DNA of 64,000 nt from TPA_inf: Saccharomyces. Taxonomy: Eukaryota. Both the position numbers and the translations under genes were made by a program. Position 1 is the stretch's first letter. Every line of letters begins with the position of its first letter. Shown in pieces: positions 4,759 through 64,000 of the stretch. The notes beneath the pieces are model-generated. The model had not been told where the DNA came from, did no database searches, and saw only the letters and a program-made list of their open reading frames with translations. The stretch is taken from positions 544,001 to 608,000 of the forward strand of contig BK006943.2 in the NCBI GenBank assembly GCA_000146045.2, in the 5' to 3' direction.

Positions 4759-5814
4759 ATGAACTCTCTGGCAAATAATAATAAGCTTTCTACTGAGGAT
4801 GAGGAAATCCATTCGGCAAGAAAAAGAGGCTATAACGAGGAGCAGAACTACAGCGAGGCCAGGAAAAAGCAAAGAGATCAAGGCTTGTTGTCACAAGAGA
4901 GCAATGACGGAAATATTGACTCTGCTCTGTTGAGCGAAGGGGCTACGCTAAAAGGGACTCAAAGTCAGTATGAAAGCGGACTGACGTCTAACAAAGATGA
5001 GAAAGGAAGTGATGACGAAGATGCGTCAGTGGCTGAGGCTGCTGTTGCCGCTACCGTCAATTATACAGACTTAATCCAGGGCCAGGAAGATAGTTCTGAT
5101 GCCCACACATCTAATCAAACGAACGCGAATGGTGAGCACAAGGATTCCCTTAATGGGGAAAGAGCCATAACCCCATCAAATGAAGGAGTCAAGCCAAACA
5201 CCTCCCTGGAGGGAATGACGTCTTCACCAATGGAATCTACACAGCAATCTAAAAACGACATGCTCATACCATTGGCAGAACACGATCGTGGGCCAGAACA
5301 CCAACAGGATGATGAAGACAATGATGACGCTGACATTGATCTCAAAAAGGATATAAGCATGCAGCCGGGTCGTCGTGGAAGAAAACCTACTACTTTGGCC
5401 ACAACAGACGAGTGGAAAAAGCAAAGAAAAGACTCCCATAAAGAAGTCGAAAGGCGTCGCCGCGAAAACATCAACACTGCAATCAACGTTTTAAGCGACC
5501 TCCTGCCCGTGAGAGAATCAAGTAAGGCAGCAATATTGGCGTGTGCCGCTGAATACATTCAAAAATTGAAAGAAACCGATGAAGCAAACATCGAAAAGTG
5601 GACGTTACAAAAATTGCTTAGCGAGCAAAACGCATCGCAATTAGCCAGTGCAAATGAGAAACTGCAGGAAGAACTGGGAAATGCTTACAAAGAAATCGAG
5701 TACATGAAACGCGTTTTAAGGAAGGAGGGAATAGAATACGAGGATATGCACACTCACAAGAAACAAGAGAACGAAAGAAAAAGCACTAGGAGCGATAATC
5801 CACATGAGGCTTGA
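4759..5814 (+). CDS. CBF1: Centromere-binding factor 1, bHLH-zip, 351 aa
   Basis: MNSLANNNKLSTEDEE...; basic region KEVERRRRENIN followed by helix-loop-helix and leucine zipper at the C-terminus. Confidence 0.95.
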   Translation: MNSLANNNKLSTEDEEIHSARKRGYNEEQNYSEARKKQRDQGLLSQESNDGNIDSALLSEGATLKGTQSQYESGLTSNKDEKGSDDEDASVAEAAVAATVNYTDLIQGQEDSSDAHTSNQTNANGEHKDSLNGERAITPSNEGVKPNTSLEGMTSSPMESTQQSKNDMLIPLAEHDRGPEHQQDDEDNDDADIDLKKDISMQPGRRGRKPTTLATTDEWKKQRKDSHKEVERRRRENINTAINVLSDLLPVRESSKAAILACAAEYIQKLKETDEANIEKWTLQKLLSEQNASQLASANEKLQEELGNAYKEIEYMKRVLRKEGIEYEDMHTHKKQENERKSTRSDNPHEA

Positions 5815-60568: not shown

Positions 60569-61651
60569 TTAAGAATAGGTTTTACTAAACTTGTAGGATA
60601 TTTCTTGAAACCTGACCTTGTCATAATAATCTTGATCATTAGAACTGCTGAAGGAGTAAGCCGCAGCATATCTTGACAGTTTGGAGTTCAACTTTTTTAG
60701 GAATTCTAACTCTTTTGAATTTAATTTTTGTAGTGATGGCGGTGGTGATTTTTCAACGTCGAAGGCAATTTCTAATGGGTAATAGTAGGAGGGCACCTGA
60801 GGTTCATCTATAAATGGATCTGCCTCATATACATTATCGGAGGCGTTGTTATTATTGCTGGTATTATTATAGTAATTACAATTAGTGCTTTTATGGTTGC
60901 TATAGTGACGATTATTAAAGGAATGTATGTTATCAGTATGTGGTGGAAACTGATCTTGATATTGGGAGTATGAATCCGTGTTTTTTGAATTTATTGATTC
61001 ATGAATATTTGTGGGTTTTGAATAGGTATAATTAGTGGTATATGGGTAGAAGTCTTGTGTGTATGGGAATTCATTGAATTCAAAATTTTCTTGGAATATT
61101 TTGATATCTTTTTGTGCATTTGTATTAGTTTCATATTTTATTGTGTCACTAATATCGATATCATCTCCATTTCTGTTGCTCTTTTGAAAGTTATCATGGT
61201 TATTGAATGATGAGTGGAACGTAGATGCGGATTCATCATTAGAAAAAAGAGATGATAATGAAGAGGATCTGGTACTTTCAGAGCTCTTTTTTCCTCTTTC
61301 AGGACCAGTTGCCATTGTGCAGTCCTTCGTAGTTTTCGTTTCCTTGGAAATAGGCTGAGAATCAATATTTTCCAAATTCAGAAACTCTTCATTGAACAAT
61401 ATTTGAGGATTAATTAAATGAATTGGTTGTGTATGAACCAAGTTCTGCAGCTGAGATGAGGCAATTTTGTCAGACTTTTCAAAATGCCAACTTCTAGGGG
61501 AAATTGTAGATCCAAAAGAAAAACAAGGACGGTCTTCTTGATCGGTGGTTGTGTCATAATAAATGTTAGGTTGTTGTTGCTGTTCAAAAGGAAAGAGGAA
61601 GAAACCATCTTCTAAGGCAGCGTGAAGTTTTCCATGCATATCCGCTTGCAT
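60569..61651 (-). CDS. IME1: Master transcriptional activator of meiosis, 360 aa
   Basis: MQADMHGKLHAALEDGFFLFPFEQQQQPNIYYDTTTDQEDRPCFSF...; followed upstream (higher coordinates) by a gene-free control region of more than 2.3 kb, as expected for IME1. Confidence 0.95.
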   Translation of the reverse strand: MQADMHGKLHAALEDGFFLFPFEQQQQPNIYYDTTTDQEDRPCFSFGSTISPRSWHFEKSDKIASSQLQNLVHTQPIHLINPQILFNEEFLNLENIDSQPISKETKTTKDCTMATGPERGKKSSESTRSSSLSSLFSNDESASTFHSSFNNHDNFQKSNRNGDDIDISDTIKYETNTNAQKDIKIFQENFEFNEFPYTQDFYPYTTNYTYSKPTNIHESINSKNTDSYSQYQDQFPPHTDNIHSFNNRHYSNHKSTNCNYYNNTSNNNNASDNVYEADPFIDEPQVPSYYYPLEIAFDVEKSPPPSLQKLNSKELEFLKKLNSKLSRYAAAYSFSSSNDQDYYDKVRFQEISYKFSKTYS

Positions 61652-62407
61652 TTTGTTTGTGGGGAGAGGAATAGAAAAGCTTTTCTTTTATTATTTTTTT
61701 CCTTTTTCACCAGTAATGGGTGCCAGTAGGAATTTGTTTCTCTGTAGGTGACTAATGACAGTAGTATATTATGCTTTTAATCTTTAACAATACTACTGGT
61801 CGATTTATAATATGATAATGTAAAATAAATCGTAATAGGATAGTCGATGTTTGTATCTACTTCACGAAACAGTTATGGTATACGGTAGTTTAAATATCTG
61901 AAGAAGCAAAAATACCGAACTACAAGGGAAGCATTTTGAGAAAAATATTAAGATCAAAAGATAATTAATTTACCTTAAATACATAAAAGAGGAAAAGTAA
62001 TATACAAGGTAAACAACAGGCAAGGAACAAGATCAAAAACGTCCGACCCCAATTTAGTAGTAAATTACAGTAAGAGAAAAAGGTATTGGGGCTGATACAT
62101 ATTAATTGTGCGTTGTTGTTGTTGTTTAATTTTAGATTGGCTATTATGAGTACACACAAAACGTTGTAAACGCAATCACCCATGGATAAGCGCTCCCTTT
62201 AAAATGCACTACGAAATCATTGATCTACTAACTTTAAACCGGACTTAAACCATCAAAGGGTGCTCTAGATCTCATCGATGTATTCTGATGCAGCCAAAAT
62301 TGCGCAATCAATCACGTTTCCCGATATAGAAAACTAATTGGCTGTGTTACGTGGCTGGGGGTTCTGTAATTCCTTTCTTCCCCGGTGAATCATCAAGATT
62401 GGGCTAA

Positions 62408-62436: not shown

Positions 62437-62772
62437 AAATGGGGCCGCAGGATAAAAAATGGTGTGTCTGTAATTCCGATTTTTTGCTTATGTAATCATG
62501 TAACTTTCTTCTAGTCCCTTTGCAGACATGCATGACACTTCCTTACCCGAATAGTGAGTTAGATCTGTGTTAGGATGCAGGATGGGCAGTTCAAAGGCTT
62601 TTCTTATCGTATCTTTACCTTTTCCTGTAACTAAGAAGGTTTTTGAGTGCATGTAAAGGCACATAAATGAAACTTTAATTCCCTGCGTATTTAAGACCCA
62701 AGAAGCCACCATGACGCTTCCTTGATGTTGTATCTACCCCCAATCCTGGCGCCCCCTCCTGCGGGCACGCAT

Positions 62773-62801
62773 GCGCCTTTGATCCTTCCCCTCGAAGACG
62801 A
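62773..62801. repeat. 29-bp direct repeat, copy B (IREu-like), carrying an STRE CCCCT, about -1120 to -1150
   Basis: gcgcctttgatccttcccctcgaagacga; contains CCCCT (Msn2/4 stress-response element core); an additional CCCCCT lies at about 62752. Confidence 0.7.
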
Positions 62802-63597
62802 AAAGTAAACAAAGATACGCACTTTTTTTCTCCAACGCAGTATTGAAGGTACCATCACATGCTTACTCACTTTGCGGCTGCTATAACACCGTGGCAGTGT
62901 AACGTTTTACCGTTTGTCCTTTGCTACCGCATTTTAAAGTGGTACAAGATGTTGAGAGAAAAGATTTCCTGCAGCCATGATTAGGAGAGGTAATAGCGGA
63001 TGACATCAACGAATAAGCTTTATCCAGCGGCTTGTATAGTTCTGTGTACACAATTACTGCCGGGCTCTCTGAGCATTTGCGTTTCTCGGGCTAGCTTCAT
63101 TACTTAGTAACTTCAAATTAATGAAATATTTAATTATCATGATTCCAAACAAAACTACTTTAATTTCAATCACATTTTTGTTATCTGCCTGAAACGATAG
63201 CTGTACGGGTACGTTCTTGATAAATAAAACTCAGTGTTTAAAACTCTCTTTTTACATCTGTTCGCCGATGATTGCTTGCTCGGAGGTACTAGTCATCGGA
63301 ATTGAGGAAATTCCTTTTCTCCTTTGTTTTCTCTTTATCCCCGCGTAAATACGCGGAATGCCAATAATCAAGTACACATTCTTTCTCCAAGTTGGCCAAA
63401 AAATAGTTCAAATTCTTTAAACTAAGCGCTATTAATTATTATTAATTATATAAGTTTGAAAATATCAATGCAGGACCCTATTTCTTCACGAGGGTGTATC
63501 CAGAAACGGTTTCTTATATAGTGTTGGCGCTCACTTTTTTCCTACCCACGTCTATATATGCAACGCCTACTTGTTTTAATCAACATCACAATTTTAT

Positions 63598-63610
63598 GCT
63601 TTTGAGGTAC
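63598..63610 (-). promoter_or_regulatory. Rme1 response element (proximal), about -1950 from IME1 ATG
   Basis: Minus-strand GTACCTCAAAAGC (plus strand gcttttgaggtac); matches the Rme1 zinc-finger recognition core ACCTCAAAA. Confidence 0.6.
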
Positions 63611-63678
63611 AGCAGTTAGCCGTACGTTTTCGGCAGTCGCTAAAAATGTAAGCGCGGCATTTACTGCCATTTAGTGGA

Positions 63679-63691
63679 CTTCTTGAGGTTC
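63679..63691 (-). promoter_or_regulatory. Rme1 response element (distal), about -2035 from IME1 ATG
   Basis: Minus-strand GAACCTCAAGAAG (plus strand cttcttgaggttc); second copy of the ACCTCAA core, about 80 bp from the first. Confidence 0.6.
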
Positions 63692-64000
63692 TTTTGACAT
63701 CCGCATTCTTGCAGCAAATACACCCCCACCCTTCTTTTATTGAGAATATCTACTGAACCTCCGTGAGGGAATACATTAATCAAATTACTCCAACACCATA
63801 CGGGCCGTGGCGGAAAGAACAGCATGATATAGATAATATATGATATGAATTGATTTTTTTTTCTTTTTTTCTTGCGGCTGGTATGGTATTGTAAGGATGA
63901 TAGTGCATTCTATGAGTGATTTTTGTGACGGTGACGTACGATCTCTATACCTTTTTAGCCGCCCATCTTCTGCCTTTCATTTTTATGCCAACCCTCCATC

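Follow-up and report, generated by a model that had tools for sequence, protein, structure and literature searches.

The two ACCTCAA motifs at about -1950 and -2035 from the IME1 ATG are very probably (we put the probability at about 93%) the two Rme1 zinc-finger sites upstream of IME1, which serve as the UAS of IRT1, the lncRNA that silences IME1 in cis. For this reading, position, motif, clustering, and conservation were computed here, and Rme1 occupancy and the lncRNA mechanism come from the literature. The Rme1 sites upstream of IME1 are already known and thoroughly characterized and hold no new biology: an IME1 promoter harboring two Rme1p binding sites has been described (PMC6667471), and the sites have been placed within IRT2 and immediately 5' of IRT1 (PMC5823921). 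The initial annotation was right to call these elements known rather than novel.

Position, motif match, and clustering

All distances were counted from IME1 itself. The window (the whole 64-kb stretch of DNA that was analyzed) contains the IME1 open reading frame (ORF) on its minus strand, with FIP1-like and BUD4-like ORFs as neighbors, in synteny with FIP1 and BUD4. The encoded protein matches Ime1p throughout, which confirms the gene assignment made in the initial annotation, and the A of the ATG, at position 61651 (minus strand), served as the zero point for upstream distances.

60569 to 61651, minus strand: IME1 coding sequence, 360 aa (ORF, 100% identical to S. cerevisiae Ime1p)

Exact matching placed minus-strand GTACCTCAAAAGC at 63598 to 63610, corresponding to -1959 to -1947 from the IME1 ATG, and minus-strand GAACCTCAAGAAG at 63679 to 63691, corresponding to -2040 to -2028. 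Both 13-mers lie on the IME1 sense strand, 81 bp apart from start to start, and in the minus-strand read of 63400 to 64000 they occur in the contexts ...ctgctGTACCTCAAAAGCataaaat... and ...tcaaaaGAACCTCAAGAAGtccact... The 13-mers, strand, coordinates, and spacing of about 80 bp proposed earlier were thus recovered exactly, and the proposed distances of about -1950 and -2035 agree with those measured. The S. cerevisiae Rme1 motif is quoted as 5'-GWACCWCAADA-3' (PMC7718266); the 11-mers contained in the two sites, GTACCTCAAAA (63600 to 63610) in the proximal site and GAACCTCAAGA (63681 to 63691) in the distal site, fit it with 0 mismatches, and the match to an Rme1 motif that had been claimed for both therefore holds as well.

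63598 to 63610, minus strand: proximal Rme1 site GTACCTCAAAAGC (consensus match and conservation)
63679 to 63691, minus strand: distal Rme1 site GAACCTCAAGAAG (consensus match, conservation, and location within a published primer and a published ChIP amplicon)

The 9-mer core ACCTCAARA has 2 matches in the 64-kb window, only at the positions of GTACCTCAAAAGC and GAACCTCAAGAAG, and shuffled sequences lead one to expect 1.98, so the count alone is at chance level. It is the arrangement (same strand, 81 bp apart) that is above chance. For the window as a whole, the expected number of same-strand ACCTCAARA pairs no more than 100 bp apart is about 0.003, and the probability of at least 2 sense-strand copies in the 2,349-bp IME1 upstream region is about 6e-4, both of these clustering estimates being analytic and built on the motif rate obtained from shuffles. 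One-mismatch matches to GWACCTCAARA number 8, versus 5.5 expected, and the 6 of them located away from the two sites do not exceed chance. The ORFs that overlap the IME1 upstream region are all short (at most 54 aa), and an Rfam scan of the 2.35-kb region matched no family; on these grounds, a reading of the motifs as coding sequence or structured RNA was rejected.

The two motifs appear to be the same elements as the published Rme1 sites of IME1 and not relatives of them. Gene, strand, coordinates (about -1950 and about -2035), number (two), and motif (GWACCWCAADA) agree, and so, probably, does the placement within IRT2 and directly 5' of IRT1. No difference from the published sites was detected, the window sequence being reference-like and the sites identical in five other assemblies. 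Primers of the van Werven laboratory, taken from the oligonucleotide table of PMC5823921, were mapped to the window. Primer “IME1 -2050 fw” (ggatgtcaaaagaacctcaaga) maps to -2051 to -2030, with the distal motif inside it, and the Rme1-ChIP pair FW329/FW330 (“IME1 -2100”) spans approximately -2152 to -2014 and includes the distal site only. The amplicon “IME1 -2000”, used for IRT2 RT-qPCR, maps to -1996 to -1907 and overlaps the proximal motif, as do the scanning MNase primers FW2452 (gctgtacctcaaaagcataa) and FW1906 (PMC7816125). A Ume6 site has been reported at -2314 from the IME1 AUG, ~90 bp upstream of IRT2 (PMC5823921), and the string tgggcggcta of that site begins at exactly -2314 in our numbering (63956 to 63965); the published and present coordinate frames therefore coincide. 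A text search of the literature for the motif strings themselves matched only unrelated primer sequences. Shimizu et al., 1998, reportedly located the Rme1 sites near -2030 and -1950, which matches the present positions, and the primer name “IME1 -2050 fw” indirectly corroborates these coordinates.

Conservation of the sites and their surroundings

Seven species were compared: S. cerevisiae, S. paradoxus, a paradoxus-like lineage (P0003), S. kudriavzevii, S. arboricola, S. uvarum, and S. eubayanus. When up to 4 kb upstream of IME1 was considered, each of them (7/7) had exactly two ACCWCAA motifs, both in the sense orientation, 79 to 88 bp apart, and located between -1885 and -2088. In a MAFFT alignment of the seven promoters, 27% of the S. 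cerevisiae positions are invariant; ranked by conservation among 11-mers, the proximal site falls in the top 1% and the distal site in the top 2.3%. The proximal core ACCTCAAAAG and the distal core AACCTCAA are each invariant in 7/7 species. The distal site of S. uvarum and S. eubayanus has A rather than G as its first base (AAACCTCAAAA), which takes it off the strict consensus at position 1, and has A at position 10, which is allowed by the D of the consensus. Within S. cerevisiae, both sites are unchanged and at the same positions in 5 other assemblies, despite 7 to 24 other promoter differences from the window. Purifying selection of the kind expected of a functional element is thus seen at both sites, in their fixed number, orientation, and spacing and in their conservation rank. 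The initial annotation had described the cell-type control input as intact, and it is: both sites are intact in the five other S. cerevisiae assemblies and in the six other species.

Six invariant runs of at least 9 bp are present in the 2.35-kb promoter across the seven species. The proximal core and the URS1 core GCGGCTAAA are included among them; the four further runs, 9 to 13 bp in length, are candidate factor sites found in the seven-species alignment.

62801 to 62813 (-1162), minus strand: invariant run TTTGTTTACTTTT, candidate factor site
62193 to 62203 (-552), minus strand: invariant run TTTAAAGGGAG, candidate factor site
62181 to 62189 (-538), minus strand: invariant run TTATCCATG, candidate factor site
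62046 to 62057 (-406), minus strand: invariant run CTAAATTGGGGT, candidate factor site

Around the Rme1 sites, the Ume6 site lies upstream at -2314, the IRT2 qPCR amplicon (-1996 to -1907) lies over the proximal site, and a putative TATA element lies downstream at -1869. A conserved block separates the two sites, and the transcribed region of IRT2, as described in the literature, contains both of them.

63954 to 63965 (-2314 to -2303), minus strand: Ume6/URS1 site tgggcggctaaa, placed by its position in PMC5823921 and by conservation; Ime1-Ume6 input driving IRT2
63558 to 63875, minus strand: IRT2 transcribed region, ends approximate (literature)
63650 to 63663 (-2012 to -1999), minus strand: conserved block TAAATGCCGCGCTT between the Rme1 sites, 13/14 positions invariant in seven species
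63513 to 63520 (-1869 to -1862), minus strand: putative IRT1 TATA element TATATAAG, 78 bp downstream of the proximal Rme1 site

The TATATA core of TATATAAG is invariant in 7/7 species, and its flanks have diverged. This element is likely the core-promoter TATA of IRT1, an assignment inferred from the location of the Rme1 sites directly upstream of IRT1 (PMC5823921). Two activator sites 80 to 170 bp upstream of a conserved TATA represent a standard yeast promoter layout, which fits a role for the sites as the UAS of IRT1. The block TAAATGCCGCGCTT is conserved as strongly as the Rme1 sites themselves.

The window also carries differences of its own. A tight cluster of five SNPs distinguishes it from each of the five further S. 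cerevisiae assemblies that extend to this region, at 63508, 63476, 63458, 63442, and 63434 (-1857, -1825, -1807, -1791, and -1783, respectively), and this cluster adjoins the putative IRT1 TATA element on its downstream side. Two additional differences from other S. cerevisiae assemblies are found at 62584 (-933) and 62423 (-772). At -933, C is found only in the window, with T in all the other strains and in the six other species; the C is therefore the derived allele. It falls within the region reported in the literature to be bound by Tup1-Cyc8.

The URS1 core within the Ume6 site is invariant in 7/7 species. In PMC5823921 the Ume6 site is printed as tgggtggcta, and the window, the five other S. 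cerevisiae assemblies, and 5/6 other species have tgggCggcta. Upstream of its core, the site reads differently in S. uvarum (TAGGCGGCTA) and S. eubayanus (TGAGCGGCTA), yet the same C is kept. Given that C is present in the window, in the other assemblies, and in the other species, the printed T probably reflects a typographical error or a variant particular to one strain. IRT2 has been described as starting ~90 bp downstream of the Ume6 site, with a length of ~400 bp and TSSs spread over ~215 bp; the literature puts its start cluster from about -2224. Another block in the IRT2 start region, GCCACGGCCCGTAT (63795 to 63808, minus strand; approximately -2157 to -2144), is conserved in every species but S. 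uvarum and S. eubayanus (5/7).

The last base of the window corresponds to -2349 relative to IME1, 35 bp upstream of the Ume6 site. Since the IME1 promoter has been described by the Kassir laboratory as 2.1 kb, the end of the window probably lies upstream of UCS4 (the initial annotation had placed it inside) and within the IRT2 promoter. The two Rme1 sites, at about -2.0 kb, would fall inside a promoter of that length.

Activation of IRT1 and alternative readings

According to the literature, Rme1 binds both sites in cells with one mating type and activates the lncRNA IRT1, a sense transcript that crosses almost the entire IME1 promoter. IRT1 transcription is reported to establish Set2/Set3-dependent repressive chromatin, to exclude activators such as Pog1, and to silence IME1 in cis. 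In MATa/alpha diploids, RME1 is reported to be repressed by a1-alpha2, and Ime1-Ume6 at -2314 to drive IRT2 across both Rme1 sites. Transcription of IRT2 in turn assembles nucleosomes over the Rme1 sites, evicting residual Rme1 and preventing its recruitment. In haploids, low-level IRT2 transcription is reported to aid Rme1 binding instead, via H3K56ac.

These reports bear on the further claim that the motifs represent the published haploid-specific repression module of IME1. The identification stands, in that the literature and the mapped primers point to the same two sites. The functional label needs refining: recent work describes activating sites of IRT1, and “repression module” is a historical name. 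The IRT1 measurements proposed in the initial annotation were a partial acknowledgment of an activator role at IRT1.

The main rival to the IRT1 reading is the pre-2012 model, in which Rme1 binds the sites but represses IME1 directly at a distance, through activator exclusion or chromatin, and IRT1 transcription is not needed. [quoted passage not shown] 1998; both as cited in later work), and sequence alone cannot separate activation from repression. The lncRNA work contradicts this model, because in the literature Rme1 induces IRT1 and repression occurs in cis through IRT1 transcription; moreover, early termination (irt1-T) shortens IRT1 while Rme1 recruitment stays normal. Full de-repression of IME1 has been reported in haploids that carry an IRT1 terminator and have normal Rme1 occupancy. 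The conserved TATA ~80 bp downstream of the proximal site also suits a UAS-plus-core-promoter layout. We assign direct long-range repression by Rme1 only a small probability.

Lower still is the probability that the ACCTCAA motifs serve chiefly as targets of another factor and that their match to the Rme1 motif is coincidental. Conservation indicates constraint and does not name the binder, and the neighboring block TAAATGCCGCGCTT is equally conserved with no factor assigned to it. Against this, both sites fit the 11-bp Rme1 consensus, the published Rme1 ChIP signal was measured with an amplicon that covers the distal site and changes with IRT2 transcription, and the exactly two Rme1 sites of the literature have their counterpart in exactly two motifs in each species. 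Least probable of all is that the motifs are functionless chance matches, since two ACCTCAARA copies per 64 kb are indeed the expected number but a same-strand pair 81 bp apart (~0.003 expected) that keeps its position, orientation, and spacing in seven species, within a promoter with only 27% invariant positions, is not. Together, the conservation data and the mapping of the ChIP amplicon make both a non-Rme1 binder and chance very unlikely, and we retain the interpretation of the motifs as Rme1 sites that activate IRT1.

Related promoters and possible origin of the module

Rme1 has other targets in S. cerevisiae. Toone et al. reportedly described Rme1 as an activator at CLN2 in 1995. Activation of FLO11 by Rme1 has also been described (PMC5134742). 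The sites at CLN2 and FLO11 involve the same factor, presumably the same motif, and an activating output, as at IRT1. They differ in that CLN2 and FLO11 are protein-coding genes outside the window, whereas the transcript activated here is a lncRNA that represses the downstream gene.

In its architecture, the IME1 promoter resembles SRG1-SER3, which is a tandem lncRNA transcription-interference promoter in yeast. At both, sense noncoding transcription driven from an activator site upstream crosses the downstream promoter and represses it in cis; the activator, the signal (serine at SRG1-SER3 and cell type at IME1), and the scale are different. The IME1 promoter is more than 2 kb long, and a second lncRNA, IRT2, overlaps its activator sites. 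The tandem lncRNA transcription-interference class has been reviewed (PMC7470944).

Outside Saccharomyces, Torulaspora globosa and Zygosaccharomyces rouxii share the gene order RPL43-IME1-FIP1-BUD4. The RPL43-IME1 intergenic regions of these two species are short (0.9 to 1.3 kb) and contain no ACCWCAA, and a further relative (L018) likewise has a short RPL43-IME1 intergenic region with no ACCWCAA. Another relative (L017) has a match to the full consensus, GAACCTCAAAAG, at -194 in the antisense orientation, together with an ACCTCAA at -88, which is a promoter-proximal pair of mixed orientation.

About 4807 to 4818 and 4913 to 4919 in relative L017, mixed orientation: consensus match GAACCTCAAAAG and ACCTCAA

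The lack of ACCWCAA in T. globosa, Z. rouxii, and L018 supports a Saccharomyces-specific origin of the module, and the distal two-site arrangement may be specific to this genus, although the sampling behind this statement, seven closely related Saccharomyces species and four outgroups, is thin. We tentatively suggest, as a possibility that we consider rather less probable than its opposite, that the module as a whole (two sites ~80 bp apart, the block TAAATGCCGCGCTT, and the TATA ~80 bp downstream) is an innovation of the genus Saccharomyces that would have arisen with the long IME1 promoter and its lncRNAs and that may need a third factor. Such a factor would bind the block TAAATGCCGCGCTT and may, for example, position or deplete a nucleosome over the sites.

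What the present analysis adds to the known sites is modest: a seven-species footprint of fixed number, orientation, and spacing, a conserved block between the sites, and a conserved TATA downstream of them. The confirmed sites also anchor the window, the end of which, at -2349 from IME1, probably falls within the IRT2 promoter. The Rme1 sites are the cis-element that links mating type to meiotic entry in budding yeast, and the promoter that they control is a textbook case of lncRNA-mediated promoter repression.
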